A DNA stretch of 64,000 nt from Parachlamydiales bacterium (GCA_050302075.1 JBNLAH010000003.1:4484-68483); one strand, 5' to 3'; shown: positions 35,525 through 43,802, numbered from the stretch's first letter. Numbers and translations are program-made. Notes: generated by a model from the sequence alone, not told the origin.

Positions 35525-37690
35525 TCAACTTACAAGCTTTTTTTGCTTTTGATGGTTGTTAAAAGGTTTATAATAGCCTTGGTATTGACTAAAAAAGCCC
35601 CTTAGTAAAGAAGGAGCTAAGTCCATTAATACCATAAAGTCTTTTAACTTTTGCTCAAATAATGGCAACCTTTCATAATCTAATTTTTTATACTCGCATA
35701 AAAAATAGATAGCAGCTGACAATGCTATCATATCAAAGTAACTTTGTTTACTCGGCTCTATGTTAAGCCTACTCTCATAAATTTGCATACAACACCCTAA
35801 AAACTCATTTAACTCATAGCCTTCTATTTTCGATGCATCTGTTAATTTTTTGTTTTTAGTTTTTACATAAACAAAAAAAGCACCGAGTAAACACTTGTTA
35901 GTTATTTGAAAAAGTGCACTCTTATCACTTTGTAGCATCGCAATTATTTGTAATTTTGATTCAACATAAATACTAAGCGAATTTAAATTAACATGATTTG
36001 GATGAAACAAATAAATCATAATTTCATATGCAAAAGATGAATTTAAGAATTTAGATTCAGCATCTAAAAGCGTTTCATTTTGAGCTAGTTTCTTTGAAAT
36101 CTCATCTTTAATTGCCTTAGCCCTTTTTAAAAGATTTTCATCGATTAACATCAGGGCCGTCTTAAAATCAAAGATACTGGCTATAAGTTCCACTTCTTTT
36201 GAATTAGAAACCATTTGACCTTGCGCTGAACTAGAGGTTATAGCTGATGCAGAAGGCACATCTACATTCTGAATTTCTAAGGTGTTGCTATCAACTTCAA
36301 TGGATTTTGATATGGAAGATATTTCTATAGAACTTGCGAGTGAGTCTAACCTTTTGATAGCTTCAATGGTATCTTCATCTAACTCAACTTCCTGAGATAT
36401 TATTTTAATATTCGACAAAACATCTTTAAAATAATTAGTTTCAACTCTTTGTAGATAAATTCCCTCTAATTGCTCTTTTGTCATATTATCTAACTCATCT
36501 GCAGTTATATCTTTTAATCTTTCACCTTCTTTGCAGCGAGCTTGATTAAGCCTAAAAGCTAGAAAAACCTCTAAACACGAGAACTTAATATAAATTTTTA
36601 AAAACTTTGGTAGGAATTTTTTATAATAAGCATAGTCTACGCAATCCTTTTTTTTATTTTTAAAATAAAAACATATAAGAGCCAAAGAGCTGTTAGATTT
36701 TATAAATAACGCAGGATCTGGTGTTAGAATGGGAAGTGGCTTTGAACCGCTCTCTTTACTATATTTGAAATAAAAAGCTCTTACTAAAGTCCATTCTGAT
36801 AGTATGCTTTTAAAAAGATGTATCAAATTTCTTTGATGAGGTAATTTTTTAAATTCTTTAATTGTAGCTTCTAGCTGCTTTAATGAAACATCAGGCAAAT
36901 AAAGATCATATAATTTTCTATCCAATTCATACATCTCATTGATATTTAAAAGGTTATATTTGCATAAAAAGTAAATAGATGCTGCAACCGCTTGTACTTG
37001 AATATAATCAATTTCATCTTCTTGCATGCTAAATCTTTGGTTATAGATTATTTGAGATGCCCAAATTAATTTATGGATATCTATCGTGTCTAAGATAAAA
37101 CAACCATCAACATCTTCAAAAATTTGAATTGCAATTAAATAAGCTCCAAATAAAACCTTTGGAGGGGGCCATTTCGGATCTTTTTCAACAGCAAAGTCTC
37201 GGCTTTCTTTTGACCTCAACATTTTCTTTATTTTTGTTAGGTCTTTAAACAGCCTATTATGGTTCATAACCGATTTAATCTGCCCGCGAGAATAATAGAG
37301 CATCATTGCATCATAAAAAGATAACGAGATCATGAATTTTTGTTGCTCTTCTGTATAGTTACCCTGACTTTTCATTTTAATGCTATTAAGCATTATGAAA
37401 GATTTTTGAGCTAAAATACGATCTTCAGAAAACAGCGCAACTTTAATATCTAATAATTTTGAGCAACTTTTTAACTGCCTACTAGTACCAGTTAAAGATG
37501 TAATATCTATAACCTCTCTAGATTCCAAAATTGTTTGAAAATCTTTTTTATTATTTCTAAAGTCTAATAAGTTAGAAAAAACATCTTCAAAAATTTTACT
37601 TGCTTTAGTTGGAAGAGTTGGAATAGCCACCTTTGGAAAATCTTCCAATTTAATGTCTTCACTATTTTCAACCCTCTGAATACAATTCAT
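35525..37690 (-). CDS. Large hypothetical protein with internal two-module duplication
   Basis: 721 aa, no signal peptide. The N- and C-terminal halves share blocks (AVAASIYFLCKYNLLN versus ALSAAIYFLCEYKKLD), separated by a Ser-rich linker. Confidence 0.5.
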   Translation of the reverse strand: MNCIQRVENSEDIKLEDFPKVAIPTLPTKASKIFEDVFSNLLDFRNNKKDFQTILESREVIDITSLTGTSRQLKSCSKLLDIKVALFSEDRILAQKSFIMLNSIKMKSQGNYTEEQQKFMISLSFYDAMMLYYSRGQIKSVMNHNRLFKDLTKIKKMLRSKESRDFAVEKDPKWPPPKVLFGAYLIAIQIFEDVDGCFILDTIDIHKLIWASQIIYNQRFSMQEDEIDYIQVQAVAASIYFLCKYNLLNINEMYELDRKLYDLYLPDVSLKQLEATIKEFKKLPHQRNLIHLFKSILSEWTLVRAFYFKYSKESGSKPLPILTPDPALFIKSNSSLALICFYFKNKKKDCVDYAYYKKFLPKFLKIYIKFSCLEVFLAFRLNQARCKEGERLKDITADELDNMTKEQLEGIYLQRVETNYFKDVLSNIKIISQEVELDEDTIEAIKRLDSLASSIEISSISKSIEVDSNTLEIQNVDVPSASAITSSSAQGQMVSNSKEVELIASIFDFKTALMLIDENLLKRAKAIKDEISKKLAQNETLLDAESKFLNSSFAYEIMIYLFHPNHVNLNSLSIYVESKLQIIAMLQSDKSALFQITNKCLLGAFFVYVKTKNKKLTDASKIEGYELNEFLGCCMQIYESRLNIEPSKQSYFDMIALSAAIYFLCEYKKLDYERLPLFEQKLKDFMVLMDLAPSLLRGFFSQYQGYYKPFNNHQKQKKLVS

Positions 37691-37769: not shown

Positions 37770-37791
37770 AAAAGGGAGCAAGTATGCTCCC
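37770..37791 (-). terminator. Rho-independent terminator after OMP paralog A
   Basis: Minus strand GGGAGCA-TACT-TGCTCCC followed by TTTT, about 12 nt after the stop at 37804. Confidence 0.6.
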
Positions 37792-37803
37792 TAATTTAGA
37801 ACA

Positions 37804-38875
37804 TTAGAAATCGAATCTAGCACCAACATTTAAACCGTGAGACAAGACTGATCTTCTCCAGTTAAATAAATCTGTTGGGACTGTTGCATCTGTTGAAACA
37901 TTGTACTCTTCTAAGTAAGAGACAAAGTTTGGCCAGTAGTGCAATTCATATCCAAGCTTTAGTCCAAAATAGTAACAGCATTTACAAAAATGCTTTCCCC
38001 AAGTAAGACCTAAGCCTGCTTGAGCATTCATTTGGAAATCTGTGTCTTTATAGTTTTGAGTAAGTGTTGATGTACTTGCAAAGTTAGTTGCAGTATCAAA
38101 CAACGTTGACTCATCTCTGATTCTATAGTTTTTTTGCCCGATCAATGCTGAGAATGAAGAGTTTCCATATAAGCCGAATCCCCAACATAAATCAACATTC
38201 ATGTCCATACCAGTGTGTAGACCAACACCTAAATTAAAATGATGGTTTACATCAACATGGTGTGTTTGTGGGAAACCTACAACAGAGTTCTCTGCTACAT
38301 AGTCAACTCTTAAATCTGTTTTTACCCAAGCAAACCTAACACCTACAAATGGGCTAAAAGAATATCTTGAGCATGTGTATACTGTATTAAAATCAAAGTC
38401 CAACATTCTCATTTTGAAGCGGTTTTTTGCACTAGCAGAAAGACTTAAAAGTCCTGTTGTGTCCCCTTCAAATGGATCGTTTAAAAGCCAGTAAGCAGAT
38501 ATTGAATTGCTGATATTAGAACTTGATGTCACGTTCCCAACTGAAAATGAATCTGTTCCATCAGTGCTATACTGGGTGTACTTTGCTGTTCCAAAAGAGC
38601 AGTTAGAAAAGTAAACTCCCAAAGCTACTCTAAATCCTGAATCAGCAGACAAAGGCACATTATGGATATTTGAGCTATATGTATTTATAGCATTTCCTGT
38701 CCCTATAGAAAATGGCGGAACTCTGTACCTTTCACTTGCATATGGTGTTAAGCTATATGTTTTAAGGTATAAATACTCACCTTCCACAAATGCCCAGCCA
38801 CATTTCACAGGTAGTGGAAGACCAAAACAACATCTTTTGTAATTTTCATCACAGCCACACCTTGGCTCATAACAT
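37804..38875 (-). repeat. Direct repeat copy 1 (about 1.04-1.07 kb, near-identical to 40559..41630)
   Basis: By-eye alignment at a constant offset of 2755 bp. I found three mismatches between 37804 and about 38840, then progressive divergence to about 38875. Confidence 0.85.
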
Positions 38876-39036
38876 AAACTGCTACTTTTACTAGCTTGCC
38901 AGTCTTGCATATCAACTTTATCGTTGTTTTTTGACCTTGCTGATATGTCAAATTCAAAATCATTATCTTCTGCAAAACCGAAAGTCGCAAAAAACAATCC
39001 AATAGCTAGAGGAACTTTAAAAAACTGTTTCATCAC
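37804..39036 (-). CDS. Cys-containing beta-barrel outer membrane protein, MOMP-like family (paralog A)
   Basis: 410 aa. Signal peptide (...FGFA/EDN). CxC and CC motifs (EPRCGCDENYKRCCFGLPLPVKCGW). Alternating beta-strand pattern. C-terminal GARFDF with terminal Phe. Start is GTG at 39036 or ATG at 39033. Confidence 0.7.
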   Translation of the reverse strand: MMKQFFKVPLAIGLFFATFGFAEDNDFEFDISARSKNNDKVDMQDWQASKSSSLCYEPRCGCDENYKRCCFGLPLPVKCGWAFVEGEYLYLKTYSLTPYASERYRVPPFSIGTGNAINTYSSNIHNVPLSADSGFRVALGVYFSNCSFGTAKYTQYSTDGTDSFSVGNVTSSSNISNSISAYWLLNDPFEGDTTGLLSLSASAKNRFKMRMLDFDFNTVYTCSRYSFSPFVGVRFAWVKTDLRVDYVAENSVVGFPQTHHVDVNHHFNLGVGLHTGMDMNVDLCWGFGLYGNSSFSALIGQKNYRIRDESTLFDTATNFASTSTLTQNYKDTDFQMNAQAGLGLTWGKHFCKCCYYFGLKLGYELHYWPNFVSYLEEYNVSTDATVPTDLFNWRRSVLSHGLNVGARFDF

Positions 39037-39130
39037 CTTTTGTAACCTTATTTCTTAAATTTTACGCTTGGTTTAAGTTACTTAATATAAAGTAAAAATT
39101 TCAATAAATTATTTCCTTTAAACAAACTCC

Positions 39131-40396
39131 TTAAAAATCAAAACGAATTCCTGCATTCAGGCCATGTGAAAATACAGTTCTTTTCCAAACGAAAGTATCT
39201 CTTGGAATCGAATTAGCACCTACTGCATTAGAATTTAAATAAGTTAAAAAATTTGGCCAAAATATTGCTTCATAGCCGACCTTGATACCGGCATAATAAG
39301 CACATTTACAAAAATGAGCTCCCCAGTGGAATCCACATCCAAAAGAACCCGAAAATTGAACATCTGTTTGTTTATAATTTTCTGTTACTCTTGAACGAAC
39401 CGGGCCTGAATCATTTAGTAAAAGGATATCGCGTATTCGAAAGTTTCTTTGTCCAACTATAGCAGAAAATGATGACGAAGTATAAAAATTCAAATTCCAG
39501 CATAGATCTAAATTCATATCAATTCCAGTATGAAACCCAGCTCCTAAGTTAAAATGCTGGCTGACATCAATATGGTGGCCTTGTTCAAAGTCTAAAGTTG
39601 GATCAATATATTTATAATCTACGAATAAATCTGTTTTAACCCATGCTACTCTAGCCCCAACAAATGGATTAATTGAAAGATTAGAGCAAGTGATTGCTCT
39701 GTAGAAATCAAAGTCTATTACCTTCATCCTGAATCTATTGGCAGCATTACTGTTTACTTGGGTGACATTATTTAAATCAGTTGGGCCACCTCTTGTCGCA
39801 AGCAGCCAAAAAATAGTTAGACCAGATCTATTGGGAGCCGCCGCTGAATCTATATTGTCTACAGAAACACTGGCCTTTCCATCTGTTTCAAATTGGGTAT
39901 ATTTGGCTGTAAAGTAAGAGCAGGAAGAAAAATATATTCCCAAGCATGCTCTATAACCTGAATTAGCATCTAAAGGGACAAATAAATCCTCTGAGTCATA
40001 TTCAGTTGCACTTCCAATCGTTGGAGGAGGAACCTGCCTCCTAACTCCTAAAAATGGAGTTAAGCTATATGTTTTAAGGTATAGATATTCACCTTCGAGA
40101 AAGACCATACCACACCTTGCCGGTAAAGGCAGTGGGTAACAACACCTTGTATAAGGCTCACAGCAGCTTTTTGTCATACATAGAGAAGATTCTTTTTGCT
40201 TAGTTTGTTTTAATTTTTTTTCACTTCTTTCACTGCTTTCCTTTTTTTTAACATCTTCAATTGAAAAAAAACCTTTGTCTGACAAGTCTGCATTCTCAGT
40301 CAGTGTTTTATCCGGAGCTTTATTTTCTACTTTGATATCGACTTCTTCTGCAAAAATTGCACTAAAAAAGAAAAATGCTGTAAATAGTGTTCTCAT
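39131..40396 (-). CDS. Cys-containing beta-barrel outer membrane protein, MOMP-like family (divergent paralog B)
   Basis: 421 aa. Signal peptide, Lys/Glu/Ser-rich N-terminal region, CCEPYTRCCYPLPLPARCGM, shared EGEYLYLKTYSLTP block, C-terminal GIRFDF. Confidence 0.7.
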   Translation of the reverse strand: MRTLFTAFFFFSAIFAEEVDIKVENKAPDKTLTENADLSDKGFFSIEDVKKKESSERSEKKLKQTKQKESSLCMTKSCCEPYTRCCYPLPLPARCGMVFLEGEYLYLKTYSLTPFLGVRRQVPPPTIGSATEYDSEDLFVPLDANSGYRACLGIYFSSCSYFTAKYTQFETDGKASVSVDNIDSAAAPNRSGLTIFWLLATRGGPTDLNNVTQVNSNAANRFRMKVIDFDFYRAITCSNLSINPFVGARVAWVKTDLFVDYKYIDPTLDFEQGHHIDVSQHFNLGAGFHTGIDMNLDLCWNLNFYTSSSFSAIVGQRNFRIRDILLLNDSGPVRSRVTENYKQTDVQFSGSFGCGFHWGAHFCKCAYYAGIKVGYEAIFWPNFLTYLNSNAVGANSIPRDTFVWKRTVFSHGLNAGIRFDF

Positions 40397-40513
40397 AGCT
40401 ACCTTTAGTATTTAAAAAAGACAAATACTAAAAGTAAGTTAGGGGTCAATTTATTTCAAAGAAGATCTTATAATTTTTATTTTAAACTTATGAGAAAATT
40501 TATTAGACAAAGA

Positions 40514-40542
40514 CAAAAAGGGACCCTAAGAAAAAGGGTCCC
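40514..40542 (-). terminator. Rho-independent terminator after OMP paralog C
   Basis: Minus strand GGGACCCT-TTTTCTT-AGGGTCCC followed by TTTTT, about 16 nt after the stop at 40559. Confidence 0.7.
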
Positions 40543-40558
40543 TATGCTTAAAGTTACG

Positions 40559-41630
40559 TTAGAAATCGAATCTAGCACCAACATTTAAACCGTGAGACAA
40601 GACTGATCTTCTCCAGTTAAATAAATCTGCTGGGACTGTTGCATCTGTTGAAACATTGTACTCTTCTAAGTAAGAGACAAAGTTTGGCCAGTAGTGCAAT
40701 TCATATCCAAGCTTTAGTCCAAAATAGTAACAGCATTTACAAAAATGCTTTCCCCAAGTAAGACCTAAGCCTGCTTGAGCATTCATTTGGAAATCTGTGT
40801 CTTTATAGTTTTGAGTAAGTGTTGATGTACTTGCAAAGTTAGTTGCAGTATCAAACAACGTTGACTCATCTCTGATTCTATAGTATTTTTGCCCGATCAA
40901 TGCTGAGAATGAAGAGTTTCCATATAAGCCGAATCCCCAACATAAATCAACATTCATGTCCATACCAGTGTGTAGACCAACACCTAAATTAAAATGATGG
41001 TTTACATCAACATGGTGTGTTTGTGGGAAACCTACAACAGAGTTCTCTGCTACATAGTCAACTCTTAAATCTGTTTTTACCCAAGCAAACCTAACACCTA
41101 CAAATGGGCTAAAAGAATATCTTGAGCATGTGTATACTGTATTAAAATCAAAGTCCAACATTCTCATTTTGAAGCGGTTTTTTGCACTAGCAGAAAGACT
41201 TAAAAGTCCTGTTGTGTCCCCTTCAAATGGATCGTTTAAAAGCCAGTAAGCAGATATTGAATTGCTGATATTAGAACTTGATGTCACATTCCCAACTGAA
41301 AATGAATCTGTTCCATCAGTGCTATACTGGGTGTACTTTGCTGTTCCAAAAGAGCAGTTAGAAAAGTAAACTCCCAAAGCTACTCTAAATCCTGAATCAG
41401 CAGACAAAGGCACATTATGGATATTTGAGCTATATGTATTTATAGCATTTCCTGTCCCTATAGAAAATGGCGGAACTCTGTACCTTTCACTTGCATATGG
41501 TGTTAAGCTATATGTTTTAAGGTATAAATACTCACCTTCCACAAATGCCCAGCCACATTTCACAGGTAGTGGAAGACCAAAACAACATCTTTTGTAGTCT
41601 TCATCACAGCCACATCTTGGCTCAAAACAT
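40559..41630 (-). repeat. Direct repeat copy 2 (near-identical to 37804..38875)
   Basis: Same alignment. The repeat starts exactly at the stop codon (ttagaaatcgaatct...). The flanks downstream of the stop differ. Confidence 0.85.
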
Positions 41631-41818
41631 AATGAATCATCTTCTTGATTCATCGTTTGTCTATTACCGTTCATCATGTCACGATTATTCATATTACGTG
41701 ACTTTTTGTTTGATCTTGCGACCACGGCCCCACTTTCATAATCATTACTTTGAGCAAAAGTTAAACTCATGAAAAGAAATGAGGCTAAAAAAGGTAATTT
41801 ATATAGAATACCCCTCAT
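40559..41818 (-). CDS. Cys-containing beta-barrel outer membrane protein, MOMP-like family (paralog C, near-identical barrel to A)
   Basis: I place the start at the ATG at 41818, preceded by AGGAGG at 5-nt spacing (MRGILYKLPFLASFLFMSLTFAQ). The ORF track extends to 41869. The C-terminal roughly 345 aa are almost identical to paralog A. The N-terminal region is Asn/Met-rich and unrelated. Confidence 0.7.
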   Translation of the reverse strand: MRGILYKLPFLASFLFMSLTFAQSNDYESGAVVARSNKKSRNMNNRDMMNGNRQTMNQEDDSLCFEPRCGCDEDYKRCCFGLPLPVKCGWAFVEGEYLYLKTYSLTPYASERYRVPPFSIGTGNAINTYSSNIHNVPLSADSGFRVALGVYFSNCSFGTAKYTQYSTDGTDSFSVGNVTSSSNISNSISAYWLLNDPFEGDTTGLLSLSASAKNRFKMRMLDFDFNTVYTCSRYSFSPFVGVRFAWVKTDLRVDYVAENSVVGFPQTHHVDVNHHFNLGVGLHTGMDMNVDLCWGFGLYGNSSFSALIGQKYYRIRDESTLFDTATNFASTSTLTQNYKDTDFQMNAQAGLGLTWGKHFCKCCYYFGLKLGYELHYWPNFVSYLEEYNVSTDATVPADLFNWRRSVLSHGLNVGARFDF

Positions 41819-41938
41819 AAAAATCCTCCTCGTTTTCTTTCCGTTTATCATAAAAAGTAATTTTATCAAGAAAAAAAATAAAAATAATTTGATATTTTTG
41901 AAAAAAATAAAATTAAAACTACAAAAAGATAATCTAAT

Positions 41939-43336
41939 TTAGGACTTTTTTCTTTTAGATGAAGCTTTTGTTTTGTACTCTTTTAGAGTCTTTTTTACCT
42001 CTTTAGCATGATCTAGCATGGGAAGTGGATATGAGCACTTATCATGATGTTTTCCCAAATACCACTGGTGTATTTCTTTATAATCCAAATTAACAAGTTC
42101 TAAAACCCACTTTTTAATATATAAACATTTAGGATCTATTTTTAGTGCCTGAGTCCAAGGATTAAATACTCTGAAGTAAGGCTGCGCATCACATCCTGTA
42201 CTGGCAGCCCACTGCCAATTACCATTATTAACAGCAGGGTCGTAGTCTATAAGAGTTCTTGCAAAGTATTTTTCACCCCATCTCCAATCAATATGTAGGT
42301 CCTTAACAAGAAAACTAGCTACAATCATACGAGTTCTATTATGCATAAACCCAGTCTGGTTCATTTCTCGCATACCGGCATCTACAATTGGAAATCCCGT
42401 ATTGCCTTCGCACCACTTTTTAAATTTTGCCTTATTATTTTCCCACTTAATGTTATTAAATTTATGGTTAAAAGCACCTTTAAATACATGAGGGTAATAA
42501 AAAGCAACATTTGTAAAAAAGTCTCTCCAATATAAAGATCTTAAAAGCTCTGAGCTACTTCCTAACTGTCTTAATATAGCATGATACACCTCTCTTATTG
42601 AGCATGTTGTAAATTTTAAATGAGCTGAAAGATGAGTGGTTTTGTCAGGGTATGGAAAATCTCGATCTATGCTATATTTTGAAAACTTCTTTAGGTTTTT
42701 TAAAATTTTCAATGCTTCAGACCTTCCTCCTTTAGCTTGTTCGAAGCGCTTTGGTAAAACTTTTTTATTTAAGCTATTGTCTTTAGCAAAAGGAATAGTT
42801 TTCGAATAATAGTTATTATAACGATTATTTATAGGAGGTAAAACATCAAGCTTAGATGCATTTCGATAAAAAGGAGTAAAGATAGAGTAAGGTTTTTTAT
42901 CTTTTTTTAAAGTTTTTTCAACTGGAACCAATAGGGCATCGTCCGTAGAGTGAAGGTCGACCTTATACTTTGTACATGCGGCCTTGATTTTCTTATCTCT
43001 TTCGATGCTATACGGTGTATAGTCCCTATTAATAAAGACTGCTTCTATTTTCAGTTTTTCTATGCATTCAGACACTACTTTCTCAGGAGCTCCCCAAAAC
43101 AAATAAAGCTTGCCTTTTTTAGCATTTAATTCCTTTTCCAAATCTTCCAATGACTCAATCATAAATTGTAGGCAACGGTCACTTCGATATTGATTATGTT
43201 TAATTTGCTCTGGAGTGAAGATAAATGAGCAAATGACTTCTTTAGAATTATTGAGAGCTAAGATTAACCCTCTATTATCTTGAATCCTCAGATCTCTTCT
43301 AAAGATGAACAACGATCTTTGATATTTTTTTTCCAC
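41939..43336 (-). CDS. phrB: Deoxyribodipyrimidine photolyase (class I CPD photolyase/cryptochrome family)
   Basis: 465 aa with a GTG start. FRRDLRIQDN; TGFPIVDAGMREM..TGFMHNRTRMIVASFL; NNGNWQWAASTG; FRVFNP. Confidence 0.9.
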   Translation of the reverse strand: MEKKYQRSLFIFRRDLRIQDNRGLILALNNSKEVICSFIFTPEQIKHNQYRSDRCLQFMIESLEDLEKELNAKKGKLYLFWGAPEKVVSECIEKLKIEAVFINRDYTPYSIERDKKIKAACTKYKVDLHSTDDALLVPVEKTLKKDKKPYSIFTPFYRNASKLDVLPPINNRYNNYYSKTIPFAKDNSLNKKVLPKRFEQAKGGRSEALKILKNLKKFSKYSIDRDFPYPDKTTHLSAHLKFTTCSIREVYHAILRQLGSSSELLRSLYWRDFFTNVAFYYPHVFKGAFNHKFNNIKWENNKAKFKKWCEGNTGFPIVDAGMREMNQTGFMHNRTRMIVASFLVKDLHIDWRWGEKYFARTLIDYDPAVNNGNWQWAASTGCDAQPYFRVFNPWTQALKIDPKCLYIKKWVLELVNLDYKEIHQWYLGKHHDKCSYPLPMLDHAKEVKKTLKEYKTKASSKRKKS

Positions 43337-43346
43337 AAGCTTGCCT

Positions 43347-43802
43347 TTAAATAGTATTCCACCTTTTTAAAGTTTTGAGCATGCTCTTTGCATGAGAGCC
43401 TTCCCAGTAAATTTTTTTGCATTTTTTACAAACTTTAAAATTATTGAGATCCTCTTTTACATGCGGAGGGATTTCCTCTAGTATCTCATCTTTATTAATT
43501 TTATTAAGGATATAATTACATTTTAAACATCTTGAAAAAGGATGTAAAACCCAGTTAATTTTAAGCTTTTTATTAAGTTCTTTAACATTTTTTTCAAGCT
43601 CATTTGCGCTTAAAAAAATCACATTCTTATTCATTTCAGAAAAAAAGCTGTCGCATGTAAGTAAGATTCTATTTTCTTTTACAGCTATATTTAACATTTG
43701 AACATCATCAACATGTTCGGCAATAAACAAGGTATCATAGCCAGCAGCCCTTAGCCATTTCCCTAGTTTAATTAACATTCTGTCGCATAAGAACTTAATC
43801 AT
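43347..43802 (-). CDS. Mut7-C RNase domain (DUF82) protein
   Basis: 151 aa. N-terminal FLCDRMLIKLGKWLRAAGYDT (PIN-like Mut7-C). C-terminal zinc ribbon CLKCN...CKKCKKIYWEGSH. Confidence 0.75.
   Translation of the reverse strand: MIKFLCDRMLIKLGKWLRAAGYDTLFIAEHVDDVQMLNIAVKENRILLTCDSFFSEMNKNVIFLSANELEKNVKELNKKLKINWVLHPFSRCLKCNYILNKINKDEILEEIPPHVKEDLNNFKVCKKCKKIYWEGSHAKSMLKTLKRWNTI

Follow-up and report, generated by a model that had tools for sequence, protein, structure and literature searches.

Tandem PF05150 outer membrane protein genes of a Parachlamydiales bacterium: probable replacement of one barrel by another through gene conversion

Three genes for outer membrane proteins (OMPs) lie in tandem in an uncultured Parachlamydiales bacterium, and the outer two are almost identical over the part that encodes the barrel and differ over the part that encodes the N-terminus. 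This arrangement raises the question of how one gene came to carry most of the body of another. The genes, designated A, B and C, are found in a 64,000-nucleotide stretch of a metagenome-assembled genome (MAG; GCA_050302075.1, JBNLAH010000003.1:4484-68483), hereafter the window, where they form an array in the order C-B-A, with all three on the minus strand according to the listing of open reading frames (ORFs; Table 1). A preliminary description, made from the window alone, had recorded three same-strand OMP genes at this place and had offered recent duplication or ongoing gene conversion as the origin of the repeat. The three genes were recovered at the same coordinates, and the comparison with orthologous loci indicated that the barrel of A was very probably overwritten by gene conversion from C and did not arise by duplication. 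In the following, W denotes the lineage of the window and L2, L4, L5, L6 and X the compared lineages, and genes are given with the lineage as a prefix (for example, W_A).

Aligned without gaps at an offset of 2755 bp, A and C differed at 3 positions in 1038 bp (37804–38841) and at 8 positions in 1077 bp, and BLAST returned a repeat of 1077 bp with 99.26% identity, in agreement with the repeat of about 1.04 kb and three mismatches that had been read by eye. The repeat began at the stop codon, and the first base beyond it (37803) was already mismatched. Outside the repeat, the identity dropped at once to approximately 25–40%, both downward from 37803 and upward from 38878. One of the three mismatches in the core (37875, 38130 and 38533) was synonymous and two were non-synonymous (N302/Y and T387/A). 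Further differences were located at 38842, 38844, 38860 and 38870, in a transition zone within the cysteine cluster, and all the A-type alleles at these positions were common to X_A and/or L2_A. The transition zone adjoins the position of a 28-nt perfect match between A and C that is known from the unconverted L2 locus. The difference at 38130 (AAC in A, as in B) was considered as a micro-conversion from B and rejected, since the flanking bases differ.

The locus is situated between frr/photolyase and ispD, and syntenic loci were present in L2, L4, L5, L6 and X. The window itself and NCBI contig JBNLDT010000008.1 of GCA_050304555.1 shared a stretch of 21 kb without a difference. In L2 (contigs L002 and L003), the order was photolyase-C-B-A, followed by a large ORF and the gene for IspD, the same synteny as in W. 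L4 (L004) contained C-B only, and no remnant of gene A was detected there by blastn or tblastn (L004 7301–8815). L5 and L6 were more distant, with 2 and 5 paralogs, respectively. Lineage X was represented by short contigs (L007–L011 and L014–L018) from several ENA/JGI metagenomes, obtained from the 90% cluster of A and C. When genome contigs were scanned with the family alignment, the only loci recovered were two distant ones in Chlamydiota MAGs (L012, equal to L006, and L013, equal to L005), and a scan of metagenome contigs with A-type N-termini returned only known loci (L019–L021), with no further lineage to score. W, X and L2 agreed in the order and spacing of the three genes. Colinear orthologs of C with one barrel type were present in W, X, L2 and L4, and the 3' flank of A with its terminator hairpin was orthologous in W, X and L2 and unrelated to the flank of C.

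L2 retained a native and very different A barrel, while A closely resembled C in W and X. In a codon alignment, the barrel of W_A shared approximately 40–70% nucleotide identity with that of its ortholog L2_A. Its identity with L2_C was 80–90%, equal to that of W_C with L2_C, and the barrels of L2_A and L2_C were approximately 50% identical. Neighbour-joining trees of the two parts of the genes were in conflict. For the N-terminal part, W_A, X_A and L2_A formed a clade with 100% bootstrap support. For the barrel, W_A grouped with W_C (97%) and X_A with X_C (98.5%), both pairs within the C clade, and L2_A was placed outside B and C. In the gene trees of B and C, W and X were sisters, with L2 and L4 outside. 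Gene A in W and X is a mosaic, and the transfer ran from C to A. In the barrel protein tree, L2_A grouped with the OMPs of L5 and L6, the more distant loci, in a split with 100% support, which suggests that the A-type barrel is the older one and has been lost from W and X.

Synonymous divergence (dS), determined with the Nei-Gojobori method along with the non-synonymous divergence (dN), separated the events in time. The barrel dS was 0.0055 for W_A and W_C and 0.0054 for X_A and X_C, compared to 0.41–0.43 for the orthologs of W and X, 1.33 for W_C and L2_C, and about 2 for L2_A and L2_C. Since the identity of A and C reaches silent sites, selection on the protein sequence is excluded as its cause. 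The divergence within lineages is approximately 75 times younger than the split of W and X, so that W and X were each homogenised after they separated. The chimeric A gene recurred in contigs of several independent metagenomes.

The N-terminal parts had a different history. The A-specific 5' part was 78–94% identical at the nucleotide level to L2_A and X_A and approximately 50% identical to C, and the similarity of 78–94% between W_A and L2_A covered the first approximately 80 codons. The N-terminal parts of A and C, previously regarded as unrelated, could be aligned and proved to be anciently diverged paralogous segments (dN approximately 0.55, dS approximately 0.9–1.3). The diversification that had been supposed for them was not supported, as dN among orthologs was low (0.06–0.15 for A and 0.01–0.05 for C). 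The N-terminal modules are old, paralog-specific and conserved among orthologs.

The features by which interparalog gene conversion is recognised were all observed at this locus: a sharp tract, conflicting trees, identity at silent sites, and an unconverted orthologous state with an unchanged donor. Proportional divergence of the three genes across orthologous loci, which the preliminary description had named as a finding that would weaken gene conversion, was looked for, and the divergence was disproportionate. Several points weigh against this account. All compared sequences are metagenome assemblies without reads, and A and C of lineage X were mostly taken from different contigs and samples. 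The 100% identity of A and C in X may be somewhat overestimated, as assemblers merge near-identical repeats. The homogenisation of W and X may comprise a first conversion before their split followed by renewed homogenisation, or may have two independent origins. Furthermore, position 37875 of A belongs to an ACA codon (Thr), an allele also found in X_A, whereas the C genes of W and X both have GCA. This allele is not explained by a single clean tract and suggests patchy repair, two tracts or parallel mutation; a rough estimate of 0.01–0.02 for a chance coincidence points to patchy repair or more than one tract. Lastly, the expression of A and C is presumed, and the conversion may have been selected or neutral.

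The breakpoints differed between lineages. At the 5' end of the W tract, the last A-type base was nucleotide 192 of A (window position 38842, codon 64/65), and the X tract began approximately 35 codons further 3', at the motif GEYLY. At the 3' end, the W tract reached the stop codon and the X tract stopped 25–30 codons earlier, with 11 differing positions between X_A and X_C in the last approximately 80 nt of A. Two X alleles (L007 and L008) also differed in the 3' limit of the C-type sequence. In the unconverted L2 locus, the longest exact matches between A and C were 28 nt (at A codon 67, in the cysteine cluster, DYRRCCFGL) and 25 nt (at codon 399, in the C-terminal motif SHGLNVGAR), the next longest being 15 nt. 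These two islands flank the barrel and match the ends of the W tract. A length of 25–28 nt is close to the minimum for efficient strand exchange in homologous recombination, and the islands may both seed and limit the conversion. A short conversion of the cysteine cluster in L2 was left open; A and C were 84–92% identical there, compared to approximately 80% between orthologs, and two lineage-specific sites only were shared.

We propose a non-reciprocal homologous recombination in which C, 2.75 kb upstream, would have acted as the donor and a part of A of 1.04–1.08 kb, encoding the barrel, would have been overwritten. Strand exchange would be seeded and bounded by the 28-nt island in the cysteine cluster and the 25-nt island at the C-terminus, and is presumably RecA-dependent. 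The promoter region, signal peptide and linker of A would have been kept, as would its 3' flank and terminator. The process is recurrent, with the barrel in X replaced likewise between other breakpoints. W and X would thereby have lost the older A-type barrel and would presumably make a single type of pore from two genes that differ in N-terminal module and upstream region.

Recent tandem or segmental duplication, the other origin named in the preliminary description, would make the A barrel a new copy of C rather than a converted older gene, and it would fit the near-identity and direct orientation of the two copies. However, the repeat was confined to the barrel, and between the copies lie the old, diverged gene B and the N-terminus of A. 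Moreover, A was orthologous to the unconverted A of L2 (L002) in its N-terminus, its upstream region, its 3' flank and its terminator. Unequal crossing-over would yield one or five genes, not the three that W, X and L2 have in the same order, and duplication is extremely unlikely. An assembler might have joined the C barrel to the N-terminus and 3' flank of A, or merged two different barrels into one. This possibility deserves attention, as the source is a MAG and short reads resolve a 1-kb repeat at 99.3% identity with difficulty. The assembly hazard anticipated earlier is real, since contigs of lineage X broke or looped within the repeat. Two of these (L015 1–127 and 2760–2886; L016 1–60 and 2760–2819) had identical ends of 127 and 60 nt with a period of 2759, and the assembly graph therefore loops through the A/C repeat. 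Nevertheless, a native A barrel, approximately 50% identical to that of C, would share no long k-mers with it beyond the 25–28 nt at the two ends. Between the copies in W there are 8 differences, and those in the transition zone carry A-type alleles that other lineages share. In addition, the junction of the A N-terminus with a C-type barrel was present in k=141 contigs of several independent samples, and identical A, B and C proteins were each encoded on two NCBI contigs. An artefact as the source of the chimera is thus most improbable.

Gene conversion could also be part of a programmed variation, in which A, B and C often undergo conversion or deletion and surface or pore properties are thereby switched within populations, as in Anaplasma msp2, T. 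pallidum tprK and H. pylori bab. The conversion was recurrent with variable endpoints, including the two X alleles with different 3' ends, and L4 is without gene A. Contigs L009 (1513–3506) and L010 (41–1322) contained the N-terminus and barrel of C, which continued into an A-type 3' end and the sequence that flanks A downstream, a hybrid C-5'/A-3' structure as predicted for a deletion between direct repeats. These structures may be such a deletion product or, equally, a wrong path through the de Bruijn graph; the X contigs as a whole, among which a few other 3' endpoints and putative deletion hybrids occur, were assembled from separate samples, and some of them may be assembly chimeras. Against programmed variation, the locus had no silent cassettes or pseudogenes, and the three genes were intact and of full length, each with its own start, Shine-Dalgarno-like sequence and upstream block. 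The surface diversity was lowered, with two identical barrels in place of two different ones, and, judged by dS, the events were rare (0.005 within genomes compared to 0.4 between lineages). We consider programmed variation very unlikely. A more far-reaching version of the conversion from C into A is that the identity islands form a frame for repeated swaps of whole barrels as cassettes, with each gene keeping its promoter and a cysteine-rich N-terminal tether that is presumably periplasmic. The outcome would be a modular, selected remodelling of the outer membrane rather than neutral concerted evolution. This idea is doubtful. If true, an ancient and widely conserved barrel type was eliminated in W and X, and single-gene deletion hybrids such as those on L009 and L010 are perhaps also made in some populations.

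All three proteins exceeded the gathering cutoff of 25.4 bits for PF05150 (Legionella_OMP, Lpg1974 family; scores in Table 1). None of them matched PF01308 (Chlam_OMP, the Chlamydiaceae major outer membrane protein (MOMP)), even at E ≤ 1, or any family in NCBIfam. In a collection of 5.8 billion proteins, only 16 homologs were found, all with PF05150; the named ones originated from Chlamydiae/Chlamydiota MAGs and were annotated as 'Lpg1974 family pore-forming outer membrane protein'. PF05150 has 219 occurrences in the PVC superphylum, including 36 in Simkania negevensis (PMC7145651), and a 'MOMP-like' family has been discussed for Simkania and Rhabdochlamydia (PMC6490308, PMC9723776). Based on the counts in the ChlamDB paper (PMC7145651), PF05150 is this 'MOMP-like' family. 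The term MOMP-like that had been applied to the three genes can stand if it is meant as for Simkania and Rhabdochlamydia, with which they share PF05150, and does not extend to the Chlamydiaceae MOMP.

An AlphaFold2 model of C, built on an alignment of 14 sequences (mean predicted local distance difference test score, pLDDT, 72), predicted an all-beta barrel at residues ~90–419 (pLDDT mostly 83–95). Residues 1–79, comprising the signal peptide, the low-complexity linker and the first part of the cysteine cluster, were disordered. The best match of the model in the PDB with Foldseek was 9nh1 (E 1.7e-11, target-normalised template modelling (TM) score 0.74), described as the Legionella major outer membrane protein, 'porin I of the Dot/Icm machine'. 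The same entry was the sole PDB match in a profile search with hmmsearch (E 9e-5). The profiles and the model of C thus place A, B and C among the PF05150 beta-barrel OMPs, with a predicted porin function. Signal peptides, a cysteine cluster and a C-terminal RFDF had been noticed in all three proteins and were confirmed: each contained 12–13 Cys (2.9–3.1%), six of them clustered just ahead of the first strand, and the C-terminus GxRFDF, an aromatic beta-signal of the kind that outer membrane proteins should have, was invariant. By inspection, the signal peptide is a hydrophobic N-terminus that extends to FA, followed by E or Q, and it was modelled as a helix at residues 7–20. The N-terminal extension is presumably periplasmic, given the usual topology of outer membrane barrels, and its cysteine cluster could plausibly be crosslinked by disulfides into the chlamydial outer membrane complex.

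The limits of the genes needed small corrections. The true start of A is most likely the ATG at 39033, as in the public assembly; an alternative GTG at 39036, used in the preliminary description, would yield 410 aa. C starts at ATG 41818, with GAGGAGGA just before it, and TTG 41869 is a mechanical ORF limit only. Each of the three genes was preceded by its own conserved upstream block. A hairpin scan of the locus detected terminator-like hairpins after A and C (Table 1) and none after B. A scan for sigma-70 consensus sequences found fewer promoter-like sites than in shuffled sequences, none convincingly placed, so that only the conserved upstream blocks and the pair of terminator-like hairpins define the transcription units.

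Table 1. Features of the OMP locus, in coordinates of the window.
Feature	Position	Strand	Remarks
Gene A	37804..39033	-	409 aa; PF05150, 64.2 bits; chimera of A-type signal peptide and linker with C-type barrel
Gene B	39131..40396	-	421 aa; diverged PF05150 paralog, 41.4 bits; outside the large repeat
Gene C	40559..41818	-	419 aa; PF05150 paralog, 62.1 bits; probable donor of the converted tract
Probable converted tract in A (recipient)	37804..38841	.	3 differences from C in 1038 bp; barrel dS 0.0055
Probable donor copy in C	40559..41596	.	matches the tract in A
5' transition zone in A	38842..38877	-	in the cysteine cluster, A codons 53–64; counterpart in C 41597–41632
A-specific 5' part	38878..39033	-	signal peptide and Asp/Ser/Lys-rich linker; orthologous to L2_A and X_A
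C-specific 5' part	41633..41818	-	signal peptide and Asn/Met-rich linker; nucleotide sequence unusually conserved among lineages
25-nt block in B	40059..40083	-	LYLKTYSLT; identical to 38747–38771 (A) and 41502–41526 (C)
Intrinsic-terminator-like hairpin after A	37773..37792	-	kept downstream of A in X and L2
Intrinsic-terminator-like hairpin after C	40519..40543	-	kept in X, L2 and L4
Conserved upstream region of C	41819..41890	-	GAGGAGGA Shine-Dalgarno sequence and invariant AT-rich promoter-like block (alignment)

The 5' part of C was the most conserved part of the locus. Over the four lineages, the 5' end of C (window 41633–41890; L002 1400–1815, L004 5690–6100, L011 195–604) was 93–100% identical at the nucleotide level, and the conserved stretch comprised the upstream AT-rich block, the GAGGAGGA Shine-Dalgarno sequence, the signal peptide and the Asn/Met-rich linker. 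Its dS was 0.14–0.24, compared to 0.4–1.3 in the C barrel, and the flanking genes were approximately 80% identical. This conservation may reflect a constraint at the nucleotide level, such as mRNA structure or regulation, or an exchange between lineages.

Gene B had been described as much diverged from its neighbours yet in possession of an identical short block, and both observations hold. The barrels of B and C shared approximately 52% protein identity (dS approximately 1.9), and the orthologs of B formed a clade of their own with 100% support. The sequence EGEYLYLKTYSLTP was common to A, B and C. It includes a perfect block of 25 nt, encoding LYLKTYSLT, which occurred three times in the window compared to 0 expected from shuffled sequences; otherwise, B was approximately 55–60% identical to A and C at the nucleotide level. 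The block in B may be a homology anchor, a trace of micro-conversion or the result of a codon-level constraint. The last codons of X_A encoded HGLNAGIRFDF, as in B (L007 2760–2858, L008 1367–1465), whereas C and L2_A ended in HGLNVGARFDF. A patch from B to A or convergence may account for this 3' end, and the codon identity with B was only partial.

OMP paralogs exchange segments by gene conversion in the msp2 and omp-1 arrays of Anaplasma and Ehrlichia. Similarly, beta-barrel OMP paralogs of T. pallidum (tprC/tprD and tprK) swap segments by gene conversion (PMC6016234). In tpr and msp2 systems, mostly small loop-encoding segments are exchanged, often from silent donors, and diversity is gained, whereas at the present locus a whole barrel was replaced and diversity was lost. 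The babA, babB and babC genes of H. pylori undergo intragenomic, non-reciprocal recombination that places the 5' part and regulation of one OMP paralog on the body of another (PMC4552749), which resembles the structure of gene A. In contrast to the tandem genes described here, the bab loci are dispersed, CT repeats absent from our locus change their phase-variable expression, and their recombination events occur within strains and infections, while the present ones were seen only between lineages and metagenomes. Chimeric OMP paralogs formed by conversion are thus already well known from H. pylori bab and T. pallidum tprC/D, and the locus is a new, well-documented example rather than a new kind of system. 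Its instructive detail is an anchor-delimited replacement of the whole barrel that recurs in sister lineages. A literature search on gene conversion between chlamydial OMP paralogs retrieved no title or abstract on the PF05150 family.

As members of PF05150 with a predicted barrel closest to 9nh1, the three proteins resemble both the MOMP-like proteins of Simkania and Rhabdochlamydia and the Legionella MOMP. Like the former, they are multi-copy, partly tandem paralogs in Chlamydiota (PMC7145651; PMC6490308). Unlike the MOMP-like proteins of Simkania, which contain <1.1% Cys (PMC6490308), they are rich in cysteine, and they differ from that family in the six-Cys cluster within a disordered N-terminal extension of approximately 60–70 residues. 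The identity with the Legionella MOMP was approximately 14% in the structural alignment, and porin activity of the proteins described here is a prediction. The Chlamydiaceae MOMP (OmpA, PF01308) is likewise a cysteine-rich, abundant barrel porin; as it belongs to a different Pfam family, the likeness would be a functional analogy. The composition of the outer membrane is the most variable and least understood trait that separates environmental chlamydiae from pathogens. The PF05150 'MOMP-like' proteins are the largest OMP family of environmental chlamydiae, and the locus provides a clean, dated case of its evolution. Ortholog calls and phylogenies of such OMPs mislead unless the N-terminus and the barrel are handled separately, and repeats of 1 kb fragment or short-circuit short-read assemblies of such genomes.

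The gene downstream of A (35525–37690, minus strand) encodes a protein of 721 aa with only a weak match to Pfam, below the cutoff. Its length varied by lineage (721, 727, 854 or 885 aa), and blastn did not match it to its counterpart in L4. This neighbour of the OMP array evolves fast and has no assigned function. The sole Rfam matches in the window were three tRNA genes on the minus strand, at 48725–48880 and 51255–51325, with no match in the OMP locus. Lineage X lacked the photolyase and Mut7-C genes that are located upstream of C in the window, with short remnants of both ends (L009 1151–1513 and L011 105–385, aligned with window positions ~41880–43770), which indicates a deletion of approximately 1.75 kb in X.

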